Shown: piece after piece, positions 1,701 through 12,776 of the stretch
Numbering within the stretch: the stretch's first letter is position 1
Layout: every line of letters begins with the position of its first letter
Assembly (NCBI GenBank): GCA_963827655.1
Contig: CAWHCF010000046.1
Span: 1-64,000 of the forward strand
DNA length: 64,000 nt
Source of the DNA: an uncultured Acidobacteriota bacterium
GTDB taxonomy: Bacteria > Acidobacteriota > UBA6911
Reading direction: 5' to 3'
Made by a program: the position numbers and the translations under genes
Notes under the pieces: model-generated
The model's database searches: none
What the model was told of the DNA's origin: nothing
The model's input: the letters and a program-made list of their open reading frames with translations, nothing else

Positions 1701-3218
1701 GCATACAAGAAACCATGGGACCAGTGGGCAGGACCGAAAGAAGGACCGGGGCCTATCTTGCCGGCTACCCGTCTACCCCGTCGGTATTCAAAGTTGTCGT
1801 TCGGAATACTCATCCCCACTCTGTTAGCACTAGCTGCTGTTCCAGTGTTACTCATCGGCGCGATCTATGCAACCATGCGCGCAAAACGGCGCGCGTACGA
1901 TCTCAGCCTCACGGCACCCTTGGAGACCCCCGCAGCCCCTCCCAAGGACCTGGACTGGGGCTTGGATCGGAGGGATACGAGAAAGGAATTTGACGATCGG
2001 ACCGTGATTCTTCCCGTGCCTGCGCCAGATCCCCAGATAAAGCATGCATATCCAATCATCGACGTCAATCTCTGCGTGGGTTGCAAAGCCTGTGTCGAGG
2101 TATGCCCCTTTGGAGTTTTAGAACTCATAAACGGCAAAGCAGTTCCGACCCTAATTGGGGCGTGCCAGGAAGACAGCGCGTGCGTCAGGGTTTGTCCGAC
2201 TTACGCCGTCAAGCTCATAGGCACAGGTAAGGTTCTTCAGACCGCTGAAATACCTGATGTAGGTGAGTCTTACGAAACGAATAAAAAAGGACTCTACTGC
2301 ATCGGCGATGTGACAAGTCTGCCGCTGATCAAAAATGCGATCAATATGGGCAAAAAGGTTATCGATCGTGTGGTTGATTCGAAGCCGTCGGGAACTGGGG
2401 AGTATGACGTCGCGATTGTTGGTGTGGGGCCCGCTGGGCTGAGTGCAGCGCTGAGCGCGCAAGCAGCGGGCCTCAATTACATTGCTCTCGAACAGGGTGA
2501 AACGGCCAACACCATCCGAAACTATCCCAGGCAGAAGCTGGTGTTGGGCGAACCGGTAAACGTCCCCGCATTCGGTCGGCTGGAGATCAAGGATTGCTTG
2601 AAGGAAGATTTGTTAGAATTATGGGATCGAATCATTGTCGAGAGCGGTGTAAAAATCCGAACGAGTCAAAAGGTTGAGAACGTTCAGGGTGAAGATGGGA
2701 ATTTTGTGCTCACCACGCCTGACAATCAGTACACGGCTAAGAAAGTAATTCTTGCGATCGGGAAGCGCGGCACGCCTAGGAGACTGGATGTCCCCGGAGA
2801 ACAACTTCCGAAAGTTAGTTACAGCCTGGTCGACGCAGCAGCTTATCAGAATAAACACGTTCTGATCGTGGGTGGGGGCGACTCCGCCCTTGAAGCGTGC
2901 ATTGGCCTGGCCGCCCAGGGCACCAACACTGTCTCGCTCTCTTACCGCAAAGAAAAATTCGCAGGGGCCAAAAGCCGTAATATTGCGAAGATAAAAGAGG
3001 AGTTCAAGAACGGAAGGGTCACGTTTATCCCGAACTCCAAAGTAAAAGAAATCCGCGAGTCGGATGTAATTTTGAAAATCAAGGAAGCCGAACAGGTCTT
3101 GCTCAACGACTATGTGATTATACTGATCGGCGGCGAACTGCCGAAGCCGTTTCTTGAGAAAGCAGGGATCCGTCTCATCCGTCGCAACCTTACTGAGGCG
3201 ACGCCGCCCGCATCTTAA
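1572..3218 (+). CDS. TM helix + 2x[4Fe-4S] ferredoxin domain + FAD/NAD(P)-dependent oxidoreductase (thioredoxin reductase/YpdA-like fold)
   Basis: Fe-S motifs CVGCKACVEVCP and CQEDSACVRVCP; FAD motif VAIVGVGPAGLSAA; NAD(P) motif VLIVGGGDSA; TM segment ILIPTLLALAAVPVLLIGAIY. The true 5' end is probably continuous with the upstream heme region via a frameshift near 1690. Confidence 0.88.
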   Translation: MQRMPWGKGPGRSDTNPHPMYVMPCPARRFQRSGCSRKEFSKDAYKKPWDQWAGPKEGPGPILPATRLPRRYSKLSFGILIPTLLALAAVPVLLIGAIYATMRAKRRAYDLSLTAPLETPAAPPKDLDWGLDRRDTRKEFDDRTVILPVPAPDPQIKHAYPIIDVNLCVGCKACVEVCPFGVLELINGKAVPTLIGACQEDSACVRVCPTYAVKLIGTGKVLQTAEIPDVGESYETNKKGLYCIGDVTSLPLIKNAINMGKKVIDRVVDSKPSGTGEYDVAIVGVGPAGLSAALSAQAAGLNYIALEQGETANTIRNYPRQKLVLGEPVNVPAFGRLEIKDCLKEDLLELWDRIIVESGVKIRTSQKVENVQGEDGNFVLTTPDNQYTAKKVILAIGKRGTPRRLDVPGEQLPKVSYSLVDAAAYQNKHVLIVGGGDSALEACIGLAAQGTNTVSLSYRKEKFAGAKSRNIAKIKEEFKNGRVTFIPNSKVKEIRESDVILKIKEAEQVLLNDYVIILIGGELPKPFLEKAGIRLIRRNLTEATPPAS

Positions 3219-3339
3219 GGTCTTCGAGTTTTATATGGAGACCTGAAGACGCAAGAAGCGTCGGGTCTGTTGCAAGATACCAGGAAACCCGCCTGCGACA
3301 GACTGTATTAGCTTGAGATTATTCTATGGGGGCCTTCTC

Positions 3340-3657
3340 ATGGCAAGTGACTATGATGATGACGAAGACAGCCTAGACATTGAGCAGCCAGAACCCGAAG
3401 TACTCAGGGTTGTAGTGCCCGCCGGTAGTGAGCTTCGTTTGAAATTCGAGGATTACTTCAAACTGTCGCGCGAAGAGAGGAACAGAATCGAGCTGGAGCA
3501 ACCTGAGACTTTTCGCAACGGGCAATACGGCAAGATTATCAGTGGTGGCACAACCGGTACGGAGGTTGAGCTTCCATTCGAAAACTTGGGAACGGCAATT
3601 CTCTTCTTTTGGGATAGTAAAGGCCATTTGTTGCGTAGCGAGCAGATTTTCCCTTGA
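3340..3657 (+). CDS. Hypothetical acidic protein
   Basis: ORF 3313..3657 with likely ATG at 3340 (MASDYDDDEDS...). No family recognised. Confidence 0.6.
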   Translation: MASDYDDDEDSLDIEQPEPEVLRVVVPAGSELRLKFEDYFKLSREERNRIELEQPETFRNGQYGKIISGGTTGTEVELPFENLGTAILFFWDSKGHLLRSEQIFP

Positions 3658-3758
3658 CGAAGCCCGTTACAACTAATGGAAAACAGGCGGGATAATAACC
3701 GAAAGTCACGCGAATCGGACCACCCATCACTGAATGTGTCCTCGAAAACTAGTAGCTG

Positions 3759-3821
3759 ACCGCGAACACGCGAAGATGCGGAGATTCTTAGTGTTCCTTC
3801 GCGTCTTTGCGTCTTAGTGGT
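3759..3821. repeat. 9-mer-periodic repeat, adjacent forward + reverse copies ('empty' pair)
   Basis: ACCGCGAACACGCGAAGATGCGGA is immediately followed by GATTCTTAGTGTTCCTTCGCGTCTTTGCGTCTTAGTGGT. Confidence 0.75.
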
Positions 3822-3877
3822 CGCTTCCGTTTATTATAGCGGTCCGTCAAAGTGGAGTCGGCTCAGGTTCTTGGTCA

Positions 3878-4543
3878 TTGTTCCTAGATCCACCGGATGG
3901 GCAAACCTCGTATTCATCAACATGGGCGCGTAAGTTGAAAAAGTCACCCCACAGCCCGGCTGGGCATTTTGCCCTCGCAGATGATGCAGCCGTGCTTGTC
4001 CAGAGGGTTGCGGGCGGGGATGCGCACGCTCTGACGGCTCTTTACGATGGTACGAACCGGCTGGTCTTCGGTTTGGTGTTGCGAGTTCTCGGCGATCGGG
4101 CGGCCGCCGAAGAAGTGCTCCTGGATGTATATACCCAGGTCTGGCGCCAGGCCGCCTCGTATGACCGGGGACGCGGCTCACCGCTGGCCTGGCTGATGAT
4201 GATAGCTCGCACGCGCGCCATCGATCGGCTTCGATCCGGAAGACAGGCTCAGAAGCGCAGCGAGCCGCTCGAGAAAGCGCTGGATGAAAGATCTCCGGTA
4301 GCTGATCCCGAACAGGCAGCGGTGACTTCTGAGCGCGAGACGATGGTTCGATCGGCGCTTGAATCGCTTTCGACCGAACAGCGAGAAGTGATTGAACTGG
4401 CTTACTACAAGGGGCTGAGTCACAGCGAAATCGCGATGCAGCTCGGCCAACCGCTCGGGACTGTGAAAACTCGGACCCGGCTGGGAATGATCAAGTTGTC
4501 GGAATTGCTGGGTCCGCTGGTTGAGGGGAAGGAAATTCGGTGA
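3878..4543 (+). CDS. ECF RNA polymerase sigma-70 factor (SigK-like)
   Basis: Region 2 (AEEVLLDVYTQVWRQAASYDRGRGSPLAWLMMIARTRAIDRLR) and region 4 (QREVIELAYYKGLSHSEIA...LGTVKTRTRLG). The true start is probably downstream of 3878. Confidence 0.93.
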   Translation: MFLDPPDGQTSYSSTWARKLKKSPHSPAGHFALADDAAVLVQRVAGGDAHALTALYDGTNRLVFGLVLRVLGDRAAAEEVLLDVYTQVWRQAASYDRGRGSPLAWLMMIARTRAIDRLRSGRQAQKRSEPLEKALDERSPVADPEQAAVTSERETMVRSALESLSTEQREVIELAYYKGLSHSEIAMQLGQPLGTVKTRTRLGMIKLSELLGPLVEGKEIR

Positions 4544-4620
4544 CAGGCACCAAATTGCGCGGTTGGAGAGACCAAGGACCGGTGGTTGGCTACGCAATTT
4601 GGTGCCTGTCACCGAATTTC
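4532..4620. repeat. Perfect 28-bp inverted repeat with 33-nt spacer (REP/MITE-like)
   Basis: GAAATTCGGTGACAGGCACCAAATTGCG (4532-4559) and its reverse complement at 4593-4620. Confidence 0.9.
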
Positions 4621-4659
4621 TTCGGCTCGAAGAACCGGTAAAGGTCTAGAGGCGTTAAA

Positions 4660-5496
4660 TTGAAGCACGAAAACGTAACCGAAGAAATCCAGGAAACAGC
4701 CTCGCTGTACGCACTTGGCGCTCTCAGCCAGCATGAGGCGCGAGCCTTTAAATTTCATATGGATGAGGGCTGCGAAGTATGCGCGCGTGAGCTGGTTCGG
4801 TTTGAGAGGGTGCTGGCCGGACTGGGAATGGGCGCCCCTGAGGTCGAGCCGCCGGCCTACATTCGCGATCGGCTGGCAGCTCGCCTGGAACAAGAACGCC
4901 AGGTTTCGCCTGCCCCGCTTCGCGGGCCGGTCGAGCAAAAAAGTGTCTCGCCCCCCGCTCGACCCTACCTCCCATGGCTCATTGCCGCGTCGGTGGCTCT
5001 CGTTGCGCTGGTCTCTTTTGTTGAGTATCGGCGGTACCAGGAAGTGGATCGGCAGCAGCAGATCGTTGCTTCAACTCGCAACGAAGCCGCACAACTCCAG
5101 GCTCAATTAGAGCAACAAAAAGGAAGGCTCCAGGAGCTCGAGCAGATGAGGGACGCGCTAAGCGCCCCGGAGTCTCGCGTCATATTCCTTTCCGGCCAGG
5201 AGCCTGCTCCACCAACCTCGGCTACTATCGTATGGGACACAAAGGCGAACCGCTGGCTGGTGACTGCCAACCTGCCACAGCCGCCTGTCGGCAAGGTCTA
5301 CCAGCTTTGGTTCGTCACCGCCTCAGCCAGGGTATCGGCAGGTTTGATCCAACTCGACTCCACCGGACGCGGTTTTGCGGTCGTGCAGGTCCCGTCTGAA
5401 ATCGGCAAGATCGCTGCCGCCGCCATCACACTCGAACCCGCGGGAGGTTCGCTTCAGCCCACAATGCCCATTTACGCTCTTGGCAAAATCGGGTAA
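4660..5496 (+). CDS. Anti-sigma factor, RskA family
   Basis: N-terminal zf-HC2-like motif (LYALGAL...HMDEGCEVC), one TM, and C-terminal VYQLW...AAAITLEPAGGS..PT. Lies directly downstream of the ECF sigma. Confidence 0.92.
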   Translation: MKHENVTEEIQETASLYALGALSQHEARAFKFHMDEGCEVCARELVRFERVLAGLGMGAPEVEPPAYIRDRLAARLEQERQVSPAPLRGPVEQKSVSPPARPYLPWLIAASVALVALVSFVEYRRYQEVDRQQQIVASTRNEAAQLQAQLEQQKGRLQELEQMRDALSAPESRVIFLSGQEPAPPTSATIVWDTKANRWLVTANLPQPPVGKVYQLWFVTASARVSAGLIQLDSTGRGFAVVQVPSEIGKIAAAAITLEPAGGSLQPTMPIYALGKIG

Positions 5497-5618
5497 CTCT
5501 TCACGTCTAACCTGTTTACCGCGAACCCTCGTAAGAATTATCGCGAACTCGTGCTCGCCCTTGGTATGATGCAAAGGAGGCCACCCACGGAATGGGTATT
5601 AGACAGGAGGGAAAAACA

Positions 5619-6251
5619 ATGAGTTCGGAAGCCAGAAAGCTCAGTTTCGTTTCCTTGGCAGTACTAATCGCCTCGTTCCTGTTCACGCCTGCTTTGCGCG
5701 GCGATAATGACCTTCTTGGTGAAATCCAGTTCGTTGGGACTGGAAAGGTCGAAAAGACAGCCGGTGTCTGGGTCGATGGCCAGTACCTCGGTTATCTGAA
5801 AGAATTGGGGGGATCGAAGAAGGTCCTGCTGATGCCGGGCGAACACGAGGTCATCGTGCGCCACAACGGATACAAAGATTTCTCCCAGAAAATTGTTGTT
5901 GAACCTGGCCGTAAGCAGGTACTCAACATAGCCCTGGAAGCCGATCCTCAGGCGCGCTATCCGGAGGTGACAGCCGAAGTGAAAATGTCGGTGAAGCCAA
6001 GACGCGCCGCTGTGTTTGTCGACGATCGGTTCGTCGGCCATGTCGACGAGTTCGATGGTGCGAATCAGGGATTATTGCTGGCCCCGGGCAAACATCGGGT
6101 CAAGATCTCACTCCCCGGCTACCAGACCTTCGAAACCGATATCACGCTTGTGCCCAATCAGAAATTCGAGTTGAAAACGGAACTCTTCAAGGGGAGCATC
6201 ATGGAGGCCGGGCCCCTGATTAAAGGGAAAGACAATCCTTCTTCCAACTGA
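5619..6251 (+). CDS. Secreted PEGA-domain protein (two PEGA repeats)
   Basis: Signal peptide followed by AGVWVDGQYLG...LMPGEHEV..GY and AAVFVDDRFVG...LAPGKHRV...PGY. Confidence 0.85.
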   Translation: MSSEARKLSFVSLAVLIASFLFTPALRGDNDLLGEIQFVGTGKVEKTAGVWVDGQYLGYLKELGGSKKVLLMPGEHEVIVRHNGYKDFSQKIVVEPGRKQVLNIALEADPQARYPEVTAEVKMSVKPRRAAVFVDDRFVGHVDEFDGANQGLLLAPGKHRVKISLPGYQTFETDITLVPNQKFELKTELFKGSIMEAGPLIKGKDNPSSN

Positions 6252-6290
6252 TGATGCTCTAGCCTTTCTTCGTGTCTTGAAGGCTTAGTC

Positions 6291-6544
6291 GGTTGGTTCA
6301 TAATTACGCCGACGTATTGGGCAGAGCGGTAGGAGTCGGCGTGTTGTTGCCTAGGGACGAAGGCCTGTCAGTGAGTAGCCCCGCCCGTAAGGGCGGGGTT
6401 TTCGAAGGGTCCGTGACACGAGGTCCGAAGGACCGGCACTCCGGCAGTCGCACCTTCGGCGCTCCTTCCTGATATTGCACGTCTGATCCCGGCCTACGCT
6501 GGCCAACTCTCTGGCGGCCCTTCAGGCCTCACTGCCAAAATACG
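6291..6544. repeat. MITE/REP-like element copy 1 (right end truncated)
   Basis: Starts GGTTGGTTCATAATTACGCCGACGTATTGG, contains hairpin GCCCCGCCCGTAAGGGCGGGG and AGGTCCGAAGGACCGGCAC, ends GGCCTCACTGCCAAAATACG. Homologous to 7510-7708. Confidence 0.8.
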
Positions 6545-6592
6545 CGCTAACCGCCAGGACGCGAAAACCCAAGTTCATCGAGGTGTTCCCCG

Positions 6593-7480
6593 ATGGTCCA
6601 TGCCACTGCAGTGTCTCGACGCAAGATGATAGAGCGGACAGCCGCCTGCCTCGGGGCCGGTGAGCTATTGACTCGGACGTCGCTCTCCCAGGCGCGGGGT
6701 CCGGGTGCCGGCGCGGTTCAGAAGGGCCGCCTCAAGCAGTCGGCGGCACGCTGGTGTTACAACAAGATCCCGTTCGAAGAGCTCGCGAAAGCGGGTTCCG
6801 AGATTGGTCTAAAAGGGATCGACCTCGTTAATAATCCCGAAGATTGGCCGGTGCTCAAGAAGTATGGCCTGGTTTGCACCATGACCGCCGGGGGCGGAAC
6901 CATTGCGGACGGGCTCAATCGGAAGGAGAATCACGACAAGCTCGAGCGGGAGTTTCGCGAGAACATCCCGAGAGCGGCGGCTGCAGGATGGTCGAATGTG
7001 ATTACGTTCTCCGGAAACCGGCGGGGTCTGTCCGACCAGGAGGGATTGGATAACACCGTCGTCGGCCTGAATCGAGTCAAGGCGCTGGCCGAGGAACACA
7101 ACGTGACGGTCTGTCTGGAACTGCTCAACAGCAAAGTGGATCACAAAGACTACCAGTGCGACCATGCGGGGTGGGGGCTGGAGGTCATCAAGCGCGTCAA
7201 TTCACCACGGGTAAAGCTGCTCTACGACATTTATCACGCTCAGATTATGGATGGCGATATCATCCGAACGATTCGTGAGAACATCGGATCGATTGCCCAT
7301 TTTCACACGGGCGGCGTACCCGGTCGCCATGAGCTTGATGACACTCAAGAGCTAAACTGGCGGACCATTGCGCGCGCCATCGCGGATACGGGATTTAGCG
7401 GCTATATCGCTCACGAATTCGTGCCGGTGCGCGATCCGCTGACTTCGTTAAGAGAGGCCGTGGCAATCTTCGACGTGTAA
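6593..7480 (+). CDS. Hydroxypyruvate isomerase family / xylose-isomerase-like TIM barrel protein, Tat-like leader
   Basis: Motifs LELLNSKVDHKDY, LLYDIYHAQIMDGD, HFHTGGVPGRHE; N-terminal SRRKMI. Confidence 0.9.
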   Translation: MVHATAVSRRKMIERTAACLGAGELLTRTSLSQARGPGAGAVQKGRLKQSAARWCYNKIPFEELAKAGSEIGLKGIDLVNNPEDWPVLKKYGLVCTMTAGGGTIADGLNRKENHDKLEREFRENIPRAAAAGWSNVITFSGNRRGLSDQEGLDNTVVGLNRVKALAEEHNVTVCLELLNSKVDHKDYQCDHAGWGLEVIKRVNSPRVKLLYDIYHAQIMDGDIIRTIRENIGSIAHFHTGGVPGRHELDDTQELNWRTIARAIADTGFSGYIAHEFVPVRDPLTSLREAVAIFDV

Positions 7481-7509
7481 GTAAAACCCAACCGCAAGGA
7501 CACCAAGTT

Positions 7510-7708
7510 GGTTGGTTCATAATTACGCTGACGTATTGGTCAGGGCGATAAGAGTCGGCTGTGTTGTCGCCCAGGGCCGAAGTCCCGTCATTGAGTAGCG
7601 CCGCCCCTCAGAGGGCGGGGTTTTCAAGGGGCCCCTGACACGAGGTCCGAGGACCGGCACTCCGGCTGTGTCGCACCTTCAGGGCCTCACTGCCAAAATA
7701 CGTCACCG
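7510..7708. repeat. MITE/REP-like element copy 2; its right terminal repeat is split by the recombinase element and resumes at 10992-11009
   Basis: Left end GTTCATAATTACGCTGACGTATT. The reconstructed right end AATACGTCACCG|TAATTGCGAAC is its imperfect reverse complement (20/23). Confidence 0.8.
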
Positions 7709-7899
7709 TTAACCGGCCAATGTTTATTTATCACTAATGAGTTCTGACACTGGCGTTGTGTTTATTCTTTCTGCATTTTCTTTAAGTGAAAAAAGGAATA
7801 GAGAACTCATTGAGTTTTCTTCCTGTTTTTTCTTCCACTCAAATTCTTCGGATTCTTCCGTGAGAGGCTTCAGAGCTGTGAAGTCTTTCCGGAGAATCG

Positions 7900-8349
7900 T
7901 TGATGAAGAACAGAGATATTCGCTATTGCTGCGTTTGTAGCAAGCGGTTTGAACCCCATCCCGGCCTGGGCGGCAAGCAGCGCACGTGCGGTGGCGCCGA
8001 CTGTCAGAAACAACGACGGCGGCTCAATGCGCAAATCTGGAGAGCCAAGCATCCGGAAAGCGATGATGCGGTTTATCGCCGGATTCGCCGCCGCGATCGC
8101 CGAGCTTATCGTCGCCAATATTGGGCCACACATCCCGAAGCGCGACAGCACCATGCCAGCTACATGAGACAGTGGCGTACCAGTCACCGACTGACTTCCA
8201 TGAGCGTGAGGGACCCGTATCGCGATACGCAACTTAAGCTGCCTGCTATCAATACTTACCTGCAAGTGATGGATGTGAGGGAGGCAAATCGCATTATTAC
8301 GGCTAAGCTACTATCCCCACAAGAGTTAAACGCTGCCACTGCCGCGTGA
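7900..8349 (+). CDS. Small Cys-rich, Arg-rich protein (putative zinc-binding) of the element
   Basis: CCVCSKRFEPHP...QRTCGGADCQKQRRR motif followed by a basic helix. Confidence 0.7.
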   Translation: MMKNRDIRYCCVCSKRFEPHPGLGGKQRTCGGADCQKQRRRLNAQIWRAKHPESDDAVYRRIRRRDRRAYRRQYWATHPEARQHHASYMRQWRTSHRLTSMSVRDPYRDTQLKLPAINTYLQVMDVREANRIITAKLLSPQELNAATAA

Positions 8350-8364
8350 GGGACACGAATCGCG
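8206..8364 (+). repeat. Three iteron-like direct repeats at ~70-bp spacing
   Basis: GTGAGGGACCCGTATCGCG (8206), GTGAGGGAGGCAAATCGCA (8275), GTGAGGGACACGAATCGCG (8346). Confidence 0.7.
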
Positions 8365-8401
8365 ATGGATTCCCGGTCCCCCCGCCTTTACCTTCTTCGC
8401 C

Positions 8402-8785
8402 ATGCGAACCGACATCCCTATCCTCCGCCCAGATCGCATCCGCCGGCGCCACGGCAGTTTCGGATGGATCGAACATCGCTTCATCCGAGAGGGCTTCCTG
8501 GAAGGTCTGCATCATCCGGAAGCTCTGCTCTATGTCTTCCTGGCTATCGTGGCCGACCAACGAGGTATATCGTTCTACTCTCAAGACCGAATCCGCTATC
8601 TCTTACGTATCCCTCACGCGCATACCCTGCAGGGAGCCATCAACGAACTCGTCGATCGTGATTTGTTGGCGTACAGTTCCGGCATCTACCAAATCCTAGA
8701 TCTACCGGCTTCAGCCGGTCTCTACGATCGATCACACGATCTCAAAAAACCAGGTCAACATCGAAACCTGTCCCTCTCTCCGTGA
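8402..8785 (+). CDS. Winged helix-turn-helix protein resembling phage replication-organiser N-terminal domains
   Basis: EALLYVFLAIVADQRGISFYSQDRIRYLLRIPHAHTLQGAINELVDRDLLAY. The stop overlaps the YR1 start. Confidence 0.7.
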   Translation: MRTDIPILRPDRIRRRHGSFGWIEHRFIREGFLEGLHHPEALLYVFLAIVADQRGISFYSQDRIRYLLRIPHAHTLQGAINELVDRDLLAYSSGIYQILDLPASAGLYDRSHDLKKPGQHRNLSLSP

Positions 8786-9828
8786 TGTTTATGAGCAATA
8801 AGATCCGTCTTCAATATGAGCCGTCGACGACCGCCAGCCGTTGTCCTTATCGCTTGCTGGATCGCACAGATCGGGAGATCAAATGGGCCTGTCAGTTTCT
8901 CGATGCCCAACAAATACGCGGCCTCTCTCCGGCCTCCCTGCGAGCCTATGGCTACGACCTGTTGAACTTTTCCAAGTGGTTGCATAAAACACGATCCTCT
9001 GTATCCAGTCTCAACCAAACGTGTCTGCTCAGCTACGTTCGTTACCAACTCAACTGCCAACCTAACCCCACCCCTCAAACCATCAATCATCGACTGGTTG
9101 TCTTACATTGTCTTTATCGATTTCACTATGGTTGCGATATCCCCCAGGGCCAAGTTACCATCCAGTCTAGTTATAGAACCCGCAACCCTCTCGGCTATGG
9201 AAAACCTCGACGCCGACTGGCCCGCTTACGATTGAAGCAACCACGTCGGGTCGTGATTCCTCTTACCGCCGATGAGGTTGCCCGCTTCTGGTCCAGCTTT
9301 CGTTCTTTTCGTGACCTCAGCCTTGTCGCTTTGATGCTCTTCAATGGCCTCCGCTCGCGCGAGACTATCCAAATTCAACTCGAAGACCTCCATATCTCCC
9401 AAGCCCAGCTCCGCATCCTCGGAAAGGGCAAAAGAGAAAGAATCGTTCCCTTAGCCGACGAAACTATACAGATACTGCAACGCTACCTAGACGTGGAACG
9501 ACCTCTGGGCAACTCCTCTTATCTCTTTCTTTCTCTCAAAGGCCCCCATCGAGGCCAGCCCATGACTTGCGCCGGCCTGCGTTCTCTGTTTCGCCATCAC
9601 CGCCGCTGCAGTGACGCTCCTCAAGCGAATGCTCACCGCTTTCGACATACGTTCGGCTCCGATATGGTCCGCGCCGGCTTGTCCTTGCCGGCTCTGATGC
9701 GACTGATGGGCCATTCCAATATTCACACCACCATGCTTTACGTCGAACTCTCCCGTGAAGATGTGTGGCGCGAGTATCAACTTGCGCTTCAGCGCCGGGC
9801 TTCACTTCCTCCGCCAAAGGTCCCATGA
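8782..9828 (+). CDS. Tyrosine recombinase/integrase 1
   Basis: SAM-like N-domain (SLRAYGYDLLNF); catalytic GLRSRE, GKGKRER, HRFRH, LMGHS, TTMLY. Confidence 0.95.
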   Translation: MMFMSNKIRLQYEPSTTASRCPYRLLDRTDREIKWACQFLDAQQIRGLSPASLRAYGYDLLNFSKWLHKTRSSVSSLNQTCLLSYVRYQLNCQPNPTPQTINHRLVVLHCLYRFHYGCDIPQGQVTIQSSYRTRNPLGYGKPRRRLARLRLKQPRRVVIPLTADEVARFWSSFRSFRDLSLVALMLFNGLRSRETIQIQLEDLHISQAQLRILGKGKRERIVPLADETIQILQRYLDVERPLGNSSYLFLSLKGPHRGQPMTCAGLRSLFRHHRRCSDAPQANAHRFRHTFGSDMVRAGLSLPALMRLMGHSNIHTTMLYVELSREDVWREYQLALQRRASLPPPKVP

Positions 9829-10991
9829 ATAGACATCGGCAAGACCTCCAACAATTATTCGACTCTCACATTCAAAATCTCGCCCTAACCCTACGTCCCA
9901 ACTCCGTGCTCAGCTATCGAACCGCTGCCAGTTGCTTCCTCAACTACCTTGCTTCTTCTTATCCTCAGATTAACCGGTTCTCCCAGTTGCGCCGCGCTCC
10001 TCATATCCTGGGTTGGCTGCGAACCCTCTGTGAGAAAACACCCCCCTATAAGAGCGCAACCCGAATAGCCTATTTGATTCGTCTTCGTCGTCTGCTCCAA
10101 GACCTGGCTTCAAATCAAAAGAATTCAGGCGAACAAGACCTCATTGTCTCGGAAGATTTTCCTCCCCTTGATGCCTATCTCCCTAAGCCCCTTTCTCCAG
10201 AGGACGATCGTCTCCTGGATCAGCAACTCCGTAAAAATCCGGACCTCTCCCATACTGGCTTGCTGCTCCTGCGCGCCACCGGTATGCGAATAGGGGAATG
10301 TGTTAGTCTTTCTACAGACTGCCTGCGACATCTGCAAAAGGACCAGTGGGTCCTGCGAGTCCCGCTGGGAAAGCTTCACAACGAAAGATGGATCCCCGTC
10401 GACGACGAGATCCGCAAATTCATAGCCCGCCTTCTGTCGTTGAGAAACTTGGCCCTCAATACCTCCTCAAATCTCCTGATCCCACAACCCCGCGGACATC
10501 GTTATGCCGGCGAGGTTATCAGACACTCTCTTGATGCTGCCGCAAAGCGTGCGGGTTGCTCCACCCACATTACACCGCACCAACTTCGGCACACCTTCGC
10601 AACCGAAATGCTACGTGCAGGCATGAGTCTTCCGGCTCTAAAGGAGCTGCTCGGTCACAAATCGATCCTCATGACCATGCGCTACATCGATGTCAGTCAG
10701 ATCGATCTGCAGCAGCAATACCTCCAGACGCGCCAAAAAATAGCCAGTCGCTACATCGTTCCTAAACAACCGCTAGCAAAAAACAGAGCGACTCAAGCGA
10801 CAACATCGGGCATCCATACAATCTGCGCCTCAGTGGCTGCTGCACGCCACATGCTGGAGATGTACAGACGTCGACATACCGATAAACACCTCGACAAGAA
10901 ACTAAAGCGATTCATATGCCGGCTGGATCGCGTTGCAAAAAACTCTCGCAGCTTGACAGCACCCCAAAATGAGAACAAATTGGCCGGTCAA
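9825..10991 (+). CDS. Tyrosine recombinase/integrase 2 (no stop at element end; reads through)
   Basis: ATGA overlap with YR1; catalytic GMRIGE, LGKLH, HQLRH, LLGHK, MTMRY. The last codon inside the TIR is CAA (10989-10991) where TIR symmetry predicts TAA. Confidence 0.92.
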
Positions 10992-11036
10992 GTCACCGTA
11001 ATTGCGAACAGCCGCACTAAGGCAAGGGAAGGGTTC

Positions 11037-12776
11037 ATGACGAGAATAAGGATCTACTGGCTGGTGATCCTTTTGCCTCTTTACCTGGAAGACCCACGCG
11101 CGTCCGCCGCGCAAGAGAAGGCGGATCTCGTCGTGGTGAACGCAAAGGTCGTGACCCTGGACAAGGAATCTCGCGTGGTCGAGGCTTTCGCAGCGCGGGA
11201 GGGCAAGTTTGTCGCGGTCGGGAGTACGACGGAAATCAGGGGATGGGTCGGGCCTCAGACCAGGGTGATCGATGCGCATGGCAAGACCATTGTACCCGGG
11301 ATCATCGAAAGCCATTCTCATGCGTCGGCCGTAGCCCGGGCCGAGGCGGCCGAACCTTACCAGGAGATGACCTCGATCGCCGTCATTCAGGAGTGGGTCC
11401 GACGCGCGGCTCAGAGAAAACCTGAAGGTGAATGGATTGTGATTCCCCGATCCTACCCGAGCCGCCTCCGTGAACGCCGCTTCCCTTTCCGGGCCGAGCT
11501 TGATGCTGCGACCACTCGCCATCCGGTCGTTTTTGACGGAGCCTACGCGCATGTGTTGAATAGTCTTGCTCTGGAAAAGGCAGGTATTCGGCGCGATTCG
11601 CCCCCCCTTGCGGTCGGTGAAATCGTCCGGGATGCCGCCGGTGAACCGACCGGGCTCCTGCGGAATGCGCGCGGTCTTCTGGGCAAGTTTTTTCCTGCGC
11701 CCAAAGTCTCCAGCGTCGAGGTCCTGAACCGTCTCGAAGAACTGCACCAGATCTATGCTTCCCTCGGGATCACCAGCATGATGGAACGGGCTGGAAGCAT
11801 CGAGGATTATCGAAGGTATGAGGAACTCCGGGCGCAGAATCGCCTGAAGCTTCGCACGCGGTTCACCCTTCGGCTGCCTGGGACGACGTCAGCGGAAGCG
11901 GAGAAGTTTATCGGGAACTTACCTCTGAAGCCCGGCGGCGGCGACGAATGGCTGGCGCCTGGGCCGCTGAAGATCACGGTAGACGGTGGCATCCTGCTGG
12001 GCACGTCGTTCATGCGCGAGCACTACGGCGCAAAAGCCGTGGCGCTCTACAGCCTTACGGATCCTGATTACCGCGGCAGCCTCAGTCTCGAGCCCGAAAG
12101 CATCACGGCCCTGATCACCACCGGCCATCGTCTGGGGTGGCAGATGTCCGCTCACGTCACCGGCAACGCCGGGGTCGACCTGGTGCTCGACGCCGTCGAA
12201 GCCGCCGGGAAAATCCGGCCCATCGAAAAATCGCGCTTCAATCTCATTCACGCATACTTCCCCGACGCGGCCACAACGGCGCGCGCCAGGAAGCTCGGCG
12301 TCTGCCTCGACACCCAACCCGCCTGGTACTTCAAAGACGCCGACGCCTTGCTGACCGCCCTGGGCTCCGAACGGCTCAGCAAGTTCGTAGGGGTGCGCGA
12401 ATGGCTTAAAGCAGGGGTTCCGGTCGCAGCCAACACCGATCACATGCTGGGCATGGATCCCAATCGGGCGCTGAATCCTTTTAATCCCTTCCTCACGATG
12501 TATGTACTGGTAACCCGCAAGACCGAAGGGGGACAGGTGATCGGCGCGGCCCAAAAAGTGTCGCGCGAGCAGGCGCTGAGAATGATGACGCGGGACGCAG
12601 CCTACCTGACTTTCGACGAAGACAGGAAGGGTTCGATCGAAGCGGGCAAATTTGCGGACTTTGCAATTTTATCGGATGATTACCTGAGCTGTCCGCCGGA
12701 GAAGATAAGGAACATTCAAGCCGATACCACGATTGTGGCAGGCCGCGTAATCTACGAGCGCAAACCGGCGCCGTAG
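11037..12776 (+). CDS. Secreted amidohydrolase (YtcJ/amidohydrolase 3 family)
   Basis: Own ATG with upstream purine-rich RBS and a signal-like N-terminus; motifs IVPGIIESHSH, LKITVDGG, SAHVTGN, LIHA, KGSIEAGKFADFAIL. Confidence 0.9.
   Translation: MTRIRIYWLVILLPLYLEDPRASAAQEKADLVVVNAKVVTLDKESRVVEAFAAREGKFVAVGSTTEIRGWVGPQTRVIDAHGKTIVPGIIESHSHASAVARAEAAEPYQEMTSIAVIQEWVRRAAQRKPEGEWIVIPRSYPSRLRERRFPFRAELDAATTRHPVVFDGAYAHVLNSLALEKAGIRRDSPPLAVGEIVRDAAGEPTGLLRNARGLLGKFFPAPKVSSVEVLNRLEELHQIYASLGITSMMERAGSIEDYRRYEELRAQNRLKLRTRFTLRLPGTTSAEAEKFIGNLPLKPGGGDEWLAPGPLKITVDGGILLGTSFMREHYGAKAVALYSLTDPDYRGSLSLEPESITALITTGHRLGWQMSAHVTGNAGVDLVLDAVEAAGKIRPIEKSRFNLIHAYFPDAATTARARKLGVCLDTQPAWYFKDADALLTALGSERLSKFVGVREWLKAGVPVAANTDHMLGMDPNRALNPFNPFLTMYVLVTRKTEGGQVIGAAQKVSREQALRMMTRDAAYLTFDEDRKGSIEAGKFADFAILSDDYLSCPPEKIRNIQADTTIVAGRVIYERKPAP

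Follow-up and report, generated by a model that had tools for sequence, protein, structure and literature searches.

According to excerpts of a 2023 paper, prokaryotic transposons with tyrosine-recombinase genes form five groups (PMC10214605). Among the known systems close to the locus studied here is the Tn554 family of staphylococci and enterococci, in which a short TnpA is followed by TnpB, both being tyrosine recombinases, and insertion is site-specific; the same excerpts report that TnpC is needed for Tn554 transposition and that a carried 6-bp 'fingerprint' is found in Tn554 and SEs. Actinobacterial Tn554-related elements, and BIM, which consists of one tyrosine recombinase and an SMC-domain protein, are treated in the consulted portion of Van Houdt et al. 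2012 (PMC3414803). RIT elements are compact and cargo-free, have inverted ends, and encode three recombinases. SEs and GInts (IntA-Tfp-IntB-Srap and GinA-D) are target-specific and combine several proteins of tyrosine-recombinase fold with a small helper. Here, we analyse a 3283-bp element at positions 7709-10991 of a 64,000-nucleotide stretch of DNA (the window) from an uncultured Acidobacteriota bacterium (GenBank assembly GCA_963827655.1, contig CAWHCF010000046.1, positions 1 to 64,000).

The element is probably a cargo-free, site-specific transposon of the Tn554 type. It varies a family that already has a name, and does not form a class of its own. It encodes two tandem tyrosine recombinases, Rec1 and Rec2, preceded by two small genes. 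The ends and the recombinase genes are laid out as follows.

7709..10991, + strand: whole element, 3283 bp, with boundaries set by the restored repeat related to miniature inverted-repeat transposable elements (MITE-like repeat)
7702..7708, + strand: left 7-bp flanking repeat GTCACCG, presumed overlap or crossover region
7709..7721, + strand: left 13-bp terminal inverted repeat, TTAACCGGCCAAT
8785..9828, + strand: Rec1, TnpA-like tyrosine recombinase, 347 aa, with Pfam Phage_integrase and a SAM-like N-domain; assigned by the tree
9825..10991, + strand: Rec2, TnpB-like tyrosine recombinase, 388 aa to the stop position of its relatives; assigned by the tree
10979..10991, + strand: right 13-bp terminal inverted repeat, ATTGGCCGGTCAA, which departs from the left end at one base only, where the change abolishes the Rec2 TAA stop
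10992..10998, + strand: right 7-bp flanking repeat GTCACCG

Rec1 and Rec2 match Pfam Phage_integrase with E values of 1.5e-29 and 1.6e-32, respectively. A preliminary description of this stretch had stated that both recombinases keep the R-K-HxxR-H-Y residues; in alignment to solved XerA/XerD, these residues of both proteins indeed fall on the catalytic positions. To place the two proteins, we used a maximum-likelihood tree of 56 proteins, comprising 13 duo (two-recombinase) pairs, 24 recombinases longer than 250 aa from 10 trio (three-recombinase) loci, and TnpA/TnpB of three Tn554-type references, of which two are staphylococcal and one is from Mycolicibacterium. The 13 duo Rec2 proteins and the three TnpB proteins (two staphylococcal, one actinobacterial) occupy one side of a branch with support 99/98. 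The sister of Rec1, with support 99, is the TnpA-like protein of Mycolicibacterium, and for both recombinases the closest proteins in the tree are those of Mycolicibacterium (94 and 99 support).

The DNA sites point the same way. The element on Mycolicibacterium gilvum plasmid pMSPYR101 (L131) comprises a TnpA-like gene, an IS1182 insertion, a gene for a 643-aa TnpB-like protein, and a DUF6262 gene. Its ends are perfect 13-mers, TTGACCGGCTAAT and the complement, and 11 of the 13 positions match the left end of the window element. The recombinases and the DNA sites agree; therefore, the window element appears to belong to a branch of the Tn554-related elements. The preliminary description had held that it fits neither known layout and represents a little-described class. 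This claim is countered both by the recombinases, which appear to be a Tn554-type TnpA/TnpB pair in the same order, and by the near-identical 13-mer ends of the actinobacterial element. The two elements are not the same, in that the actinobacterial one has the long TnpB-like protein and DUF6262, lacks the two small upstream genes, and is flanked by two 7-mers that differ from each other.

We compared the element with Tn554 through two plasmid-borne members of the family: a fexA element from Staphylococcus arlettae (L163) and, from S. aureus, a tnpA-tnpB-tnpC/blaZ element (L164). The tandem order of a short TnpA-like and then a TnpB-like recombinase and the site-specific insertion are shared. 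Unlike Tn554, the window element lacks TnpC/DUF6262, carries no cargo, has two extra upstream genes and clear 13-bp inverted ends, and belongs to a group in which the flanking 7-bp repeats are identical in 14 of 27 copies; the hosts of the duo elements are Acidobacteriota and other soil and sediment phyla. Relative to Tn554, TnpC is lacking and two upstream genes are gained. None of the four element proteins matches DUF6262, although TnpC of L163 does, and no open reading frame (ORF) follows Rec2; hhalign comparisons of the alignments of the two small proteins and of the Rec2 tail with TnpC give probabilities of 0.3 or less. We found no description of the duo element, of IS21/IS110 elements headed by its two upstream genes, or of these genes as a shared cassette in the literature searched, including the consulted passages of PMC3414803, PMC10214605, and PMC8138268.

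Several observations weigh against the placement in the Tn554 family. In the best tree, the staphylococcal TnpA proteins do not join Rec1, and a trio clade lies between them with support of 56-57; the staphylococcal rows of the tree are flagged for long branches and odd composition. On the side of the placement, the approximately unbiased test does not reject a single group of Rec1 and all TnpA proteins (p 0.465). Rec2 has 388 aa (377-395 aa in its relatives), as against 637 and 687 aa for the staphylococcal and 643 aa for the actinobacterial TnpB. TnpC, needed in Tn554, is absent. The staphylococcal loci contain no plausibly placed 12-mer that resembles the window ends with three or fewer mismatches. 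Members of the family are rare: when up to six candidates were scored in each of 301 genomes sampled from the phylum, two genomes, counting the source genome, had Rec2 relatives at E ≤1e-40. In addition, no circle junction or excision product of the element was seen in the run data, which consist of assembled contigs only.

The insertion itself is real, discrete, and exact. Two parts of the interrupted MITE-like repeat flank it.

7501..7708, unstranded: left part of the interrupted MITE-like repeat, whose own inverted end has a near-copy of the target
10999..11014, unstranded: rest of the right inverted end of the MITE-like repeat

The 13-bp ends, which are complementary at 12 of 13 positions, and the 7-bp direct repeat GTCACCG are present as first described. 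When the two flanks are joined in silico through a single 7-mer, the product aligns across the junction without a break, at 85-93% identity, to eight other copies of the repeat (L003, L004, L005, L006, L007, L010, L020, L028), in agreement with the earlier proposal that excision restores an interrupted MITE end. The left-flank repeat has 49 matches in the 8.18-Mb genome. The element has one match in the same assembly of 53 contigs, indicating that it is present in a single copy. Its G+C content is 0.51-0.57, compared with about 0.60 just outside, and its GC skew is strongly negative.

The target sits in the right inverted end of the repeat itself, and the left inverted end has a one-mismatch version of it (C46:7521-7536). 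The 16-mer target occurs free in the genome in four exact and 16 one-mismatch copies; a control gave no match. A metagenome contig (2310 nt, depth 14.7) links position 7500 straight to 11015. Therefore, a related strain has both neighbouring genes, which encode a xylose-isomerase-like TIM-barrel protein and an amidohydrolase, without the repeat or the element, and this contig sets the outer limits of the repeat copy. One short contig that skips 7709-10999 (depth 2.67, with 25 letters on its shorter side) and others that skip 7680-10997 were rejected as excision products, since an intact copy of the repeat, whether in this genome or in another, has an identical sequence. The MITE-like repeat is about 224 bp long with inverted ends of about 24 bp, and two copies lie within 1.3 kb of each other at this locus; pieces of the second copy are found at 6301-6457 and 6519-6544 of the window.

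Related copies were collected through an alignment of the winged-helix proteins encoded by the second small gene, which yielded 79 loci from species-representative genomes. The hosts are mostly Acidobacteriota, represented by metagenome-assembled genomes, and also include Thermodesulfobacteriota, Nitrospirota, Planctomycetota, and further phyla. Twenty-nine copies carry relatives of Rec1 and Rec2. The 12-mer core of the left end lies upstream of the genes in all 29 with two or fewer mismatches, and both 12-mers are at the expected places in 26, giving element lengths of 3262-4000 bp. The same 12- or 13-mers bound 26 related copies; therefore, the ends of the window element are more than chance. 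The comparison of ends and flanks also bears out the preliminary view of a compact, cargo-free tyrosine-recombinase transposon with precise ends, as related loci keep the same boundaries. Activity of such elements elsewhere is suggested by near-identical pairs of copies in different flanks of other genomes (99.7%, 98.9%, and 99.98% identity) and by contigs with the element at 95-99% identity in four metagenomes from four studies. In a complete acidobacterial chromosome (L059), duo copies at 2453-5880 and 6790-10217 form a direct tandem about 900 bp apart, and the same genome has at least two further duo copies.

The 7-mers beside the ends are informative about how the elements move. Among 27 copies including the window, the left and right 7-mers match at all seven positions in 14, at six in two, at five in six, and at four or fewer in five, and the mismatches concentrate in the 3' part. 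The 7-mer varies across lineages and is common to the copies of one genome: TAGGCGT occurs three times in one genome, CTCGCAC twice in another, and CGTGCAG in two of three copies in a third genome, the remaining copy having CGTGCAA on the left. Lineage-specific 7-mers shared within a genome are as predicted by recombination over a short overlap, not as predicted by duplication at a staggered cut. In one lineage, the left 7-mer is GTCCAAA in five of five copies (one complete genome plus L076 from another genome), and the right 7-mer is the variable 7-mer of unoccupied targets read in the same genome. The element of this lineage carries its own 7-mer on the left. The Tn554 fingerprint may be analogous, in that both comprise a short element-borne sequence beside one end. 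With regard to the carried sequence without target duplication that characterizes Tn554, the window 7-mers are identical on both sides, and the GTCCAAA lineage combines a constant left with a target-derived right 7-mer.

Targets of other lineages are the 5' end of IS110-family transposase genes (the TAGGCGT lineage, L088) and a short clustered repeat in one complete genome. The duo family lands in other repeated or mobile DNA. The target repeat of the GTCCAAA lineage, a short hairpin followed by GGAGATAACGCC, has 16 occurrences in one replicon (G061 C1, L133-L148), clustered at about 2.92-2.94, 5.02-5.07, 5.61-5.63, and 5.88-5.89 Mb; the occurrences are a few kb apart and resemble cassette boundaries.

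The anatomy of the element, together with established behaviour of tyrosine recombinases, suggests the following mechanism. Rec1 and Rec2 would bind the two 13-bp inverted ends, and strand exchange over the adjacent 7 bp would release a circle. In the circle, the right and left 13-mers would come together around a single 7-mer and form a simple core site, with the 13-7-13 arrangement of loxP or dif. Recombination would then take place between this circle and a target bearing the same 7-mer, or one that is the same at its 5' side. XerC/XerD-dif and Cre/loxP resemble the predicted duo junction in having two inverted arms around an overlap of 6-8 bp; XerC/XerD are also two paralogous recombinases, and theirs is the best family-level similarity to Rec1 and Rec2. 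Unlike XerC/XerD-dif, the duo system is element-encoded and mobile, and both arms are near-identical. A minimal, cargo-free branch in soil Acidobacteriota and other phyla, with clean 13-7-13 ends and no TnpC, offers a simple system for learning how two recombinases share the work and how much overlap homology is needed.

The preliminary description had overlooked a peculiarity of the copy in the window: the Rec2 frame meets no stop codon before the element ends and continues to 12776 through the amidohydrolase gene. In related copies with an uninterrupted Rec2 frame, Rec2 usually ends 7-21 nt before the right 12-mer, and in three of them (L084, L086, L092) its stop is the TAA of the final TTAA of the right end. 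The window has the same frame as these three, but has CAA at the stop codon, a T-to-C change. Therefore, the single base at which the two ends fail to pair is also the one whose change abolishes the Rec2 stop. Because the element is single-copy, unoccupied targets are present, and the substitution in the right end loses the Rec2 stop, the evidence suggests that the window copy is dormant or crippled and probably inactive. Within 9825-12776, Rec2 is fused in frame to the amidohydrolase gene through 15 flank codons, and the amidohydrolase gene keeps its own ATG at 11037 and a signal-peptide-like start.

Two small genes and a repeat array lie between the left end and the recombinase genes.

7817..7858, + strand: four TTCTTC direct repeats with starts at 7817, 7830, 7844, and 7853 (spacings of 13, 14, and 9 nt); a candidate array of binding sites that precedes the Zn-ribbon ORF
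7903..8349, + strand: Zn-ribbon-like ORF, 148 aa, in which four Cys are invariant and a basic helical hairpin is combined with a small beta domain
8402..8785, + strand: winged-helix ORF, 127 aa; the motif R..GSFSWIDHRF near the N-terminus is conserved

The preliminary description had noted four co-oriented ORFs, the last three translationally coupled, and start-on-stop overlaps are found in the sequence: the ATG of Rec1 overlaps the TGA of the winged-helix ORF, and Rec2, starting at 9825, overlaps Rec1 by ATGA. The Zn-ribbon and winged-helix ORFs are separated by 52 nt. Neither small ORF was assigned to a Pfam or NCBIfam family. AlphaFold2 models are confident, with mean predicted local distance difference test scores of 82.8 for the winged-helix and 82.1 for the Zn-ribbon protein. 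The former has a generic fold, with numerous matches among winged-helix proteins (Z 6-7.5). For the latter, Foldseek and VIA gave no usable fold and nothing at Z ≥5, the best match being Z 4.9 over helices only. The winged-helix family forms 2068 clusters at 50% identity, all unnamed, and at 90% clustering, 7997 of 8000 scored sequences match it; all are annotated as 'hypothetical', mostly on contigs of 1-4 kb.

The spaced TTCTTC pattern occurs twice in the window, both times in the array, compared with 0.05 occurrences expected. Some IS21-type and trio relatives have comparable arrays ahead of their Zn-ribbon ORF; the repeats are within a pyrimidine-rich stretch and are not found in all relatives. 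A 67-aa ORF at 7737-7940 was taken as not real, since it overlaps the array and has no family match. Just upstream of the Zn-ribbon start, at 7866-7898, there are a short palindrome (CTTCA, 8 nt, TGAAG) and a GGAGAA ribosome-binding site; both are kept in the two closest relatives (L052, L053), and the palindrome is a possible operator. No Rfam match was found in 7300-11300, and a scan of 7450-8450 for sigma-70 promoters found no promoter-like site.

The array and the winged-helix gene raise the possibility that the element is an integrative mini-replicon, in which a Rep-like winged-helix initiator binds the TTCTTC repeats as iterons, the excised circle replicates, and the recombinases serve mainly to integrate and excise it. 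Consistent with this, the winged-helix protein matches HTH_36 (PF13730) at E 0.075, albeit with 13.3 bits against a cutoff of 25, and PF13730 is detected on some family members and on 46% of one Atlas cluster. Among structures, coverage is longest for the N-domain of a plasmid initiator (4pta; Z 7.3, 85 aligned residues) and a DnaD-like primosome protein (5wtn; Z 6.8, 92 aligned residues), and the four repeats upstream of the cassette are spaced at roughly one helical turn. However, these structure matches are tied with Crp/MarR-type regulators, and all are below Z 8, a level common for the tool. Moreover, the repeats lie in pyrimidine-rich DNA and are missing from some relatives, the 127-aa protein has no helicase-loading or origin-melting domain, and no free circular contig of the element was seen among the metagenome contigs. 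We therefore regard a mini-replicon as unlikely. Of the 'replication-type' winged helix named in the preliminary description, the winged helix stands; the replication label is tentative, as the leads are weak and the initiator match is tied with transcription factors.

A degenerate RIT element that has lost one of its three recombinases is much less probable still. RIT elements resemble the duo element in being compact and cargo-free, with multiple recombinases and inverted ends. In these phyla they also share its upstream genes, as the Zn-ribbon/winged-helix pair heads three-recombinase elements at 19 of 80 winged-helix genes, and some duo and trio cassettes are nearly identical. The identification of the trios as RIT rests on their architecture and on the long N-terminus of the first recombinase, T1, as described in the consulted portion of PMC8138268, the tree having been built without a classical Cupriavidus RIT sequence. 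In that tree, however, Rec1, Rec2, and the three trio recombinases form separate clades, each with support 100, and Rec2 groups with TnpB. The trio ends bear a TTATGTTCTGAGTT-like motif, with two tandem copies on the left and one on the right, instead of the duo 13-mer (L055, L058, L060, L072, L087, L115). Finally, the 29 related copies have two recombinases only, between conserved ends in 26, so the earlier judgement that the element is not RIT holds. Least probable of all is a fixed, domesticated recombinase pair, Xer-like or an inversion system: both proteins score best against Xer models in NCBIfam and the locus is single-copy, but the Xer scores are about 120 bits against cutoffs of 330, the 7500-to-11015 contig joins the flanking genes of a related strain without element or repeat, relatives are multi-copy in different flanks, and the composition departs from that of the flanks in G+C and GC skew.

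Two further systems were considered and excluded. The SE/GInt models GmtY/GmtZ give 30 bits against a cutoff of 340 (NF040693) and 25.2 against 600 (NF047926); the element has no Tfp-like or third recombinase-fold gene, and its gene order differs. BIM was excluded, as the element encodes no SMC-domain protein.

In the Tn554-type element that we prefer, the Zn-ribbon and winged-helix genes and the repeat array would form a DNA-binding cassette that leads the operon; tentatively, its most likely role would be to control or assist the downstream recombination genes. This cassette is not confined to duo elements. We classified what follows 80 winged-helix genes in the 79 loci. A Rec1-type recombinase follows 34 of them (29 with an intact Rec1-Rec2, three interrupted by a trio, and two with a partial Rec1 match and nothing recognisable after it), a trio of recombinases follows 19, IS21 IstA, usually with IstB, follows 17, and an IS110-family transposase follows six; nothing recognisable follows the remaining four, two of which are at contig ends. 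A Cys-rich ORF lies upstream of the winged-helix gene in 68 of the 80. In the three interrupted loci (L068, L085, L104), Rec1 is cut short and then followed by the RIT-like three-recombinase set, a pattern suggestive of trio insertion into the recombinase genes of duos.

Two observations indicate that the cassette belongs to the unit that moves. The inverted ends of the trio elements lie outside the Zn-ribbon/winged-helix pair, and in Caballeronia, a cultured host, a 3425-bp unit consisting of the two small genes, istA, and istB is present at 100% identity in six records and at 13 places over seven records. In the winged-helix tree, the four classes interleave, with 14 label changes against a minimum of four, and the starred branches force at least six for the duos; some class labels were refined after the tree was made. 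The non-coding stretch before the Zn-ribbon gene, often with short direct repeats, tracks the winged-helix clade and not the transposase class, and some duo and trio elements have nearly identical cassettes.

From these sequence comparisons, we read the cis sites and the two genes as a cassette that may have been swapped between transposon backbones. A regulatory role fits the operon-leading position of the pair, and a role in replication of the circle fits the weak initiator leads. Circular or junction-forming intermediates are described for IS21 and IS110, and would be expected for duos and trios. A broader proposal, which we consider more doubtful than not by a good way, is that a portable cassette has been exchanged repeatedly among Tn554-type duos, RIT-type trios, IS21, and IS110, and acts on a circular or junction step common to all of them, for example in circle replication or in gating of expression. 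If true, the cassette would provide an accessory function of general use to transposons, much as TnpB travels with different transposases. One pair of small putative DNA-binding proteins leads the operon in four different transposition systems, and this cross-class cassette is the finding most worth following. On a Caballeronia plasmid (L132), the IS21-family unit described above occupies 4241-7665, and an SE/GInt-like four-gene set lies just upstream of it.

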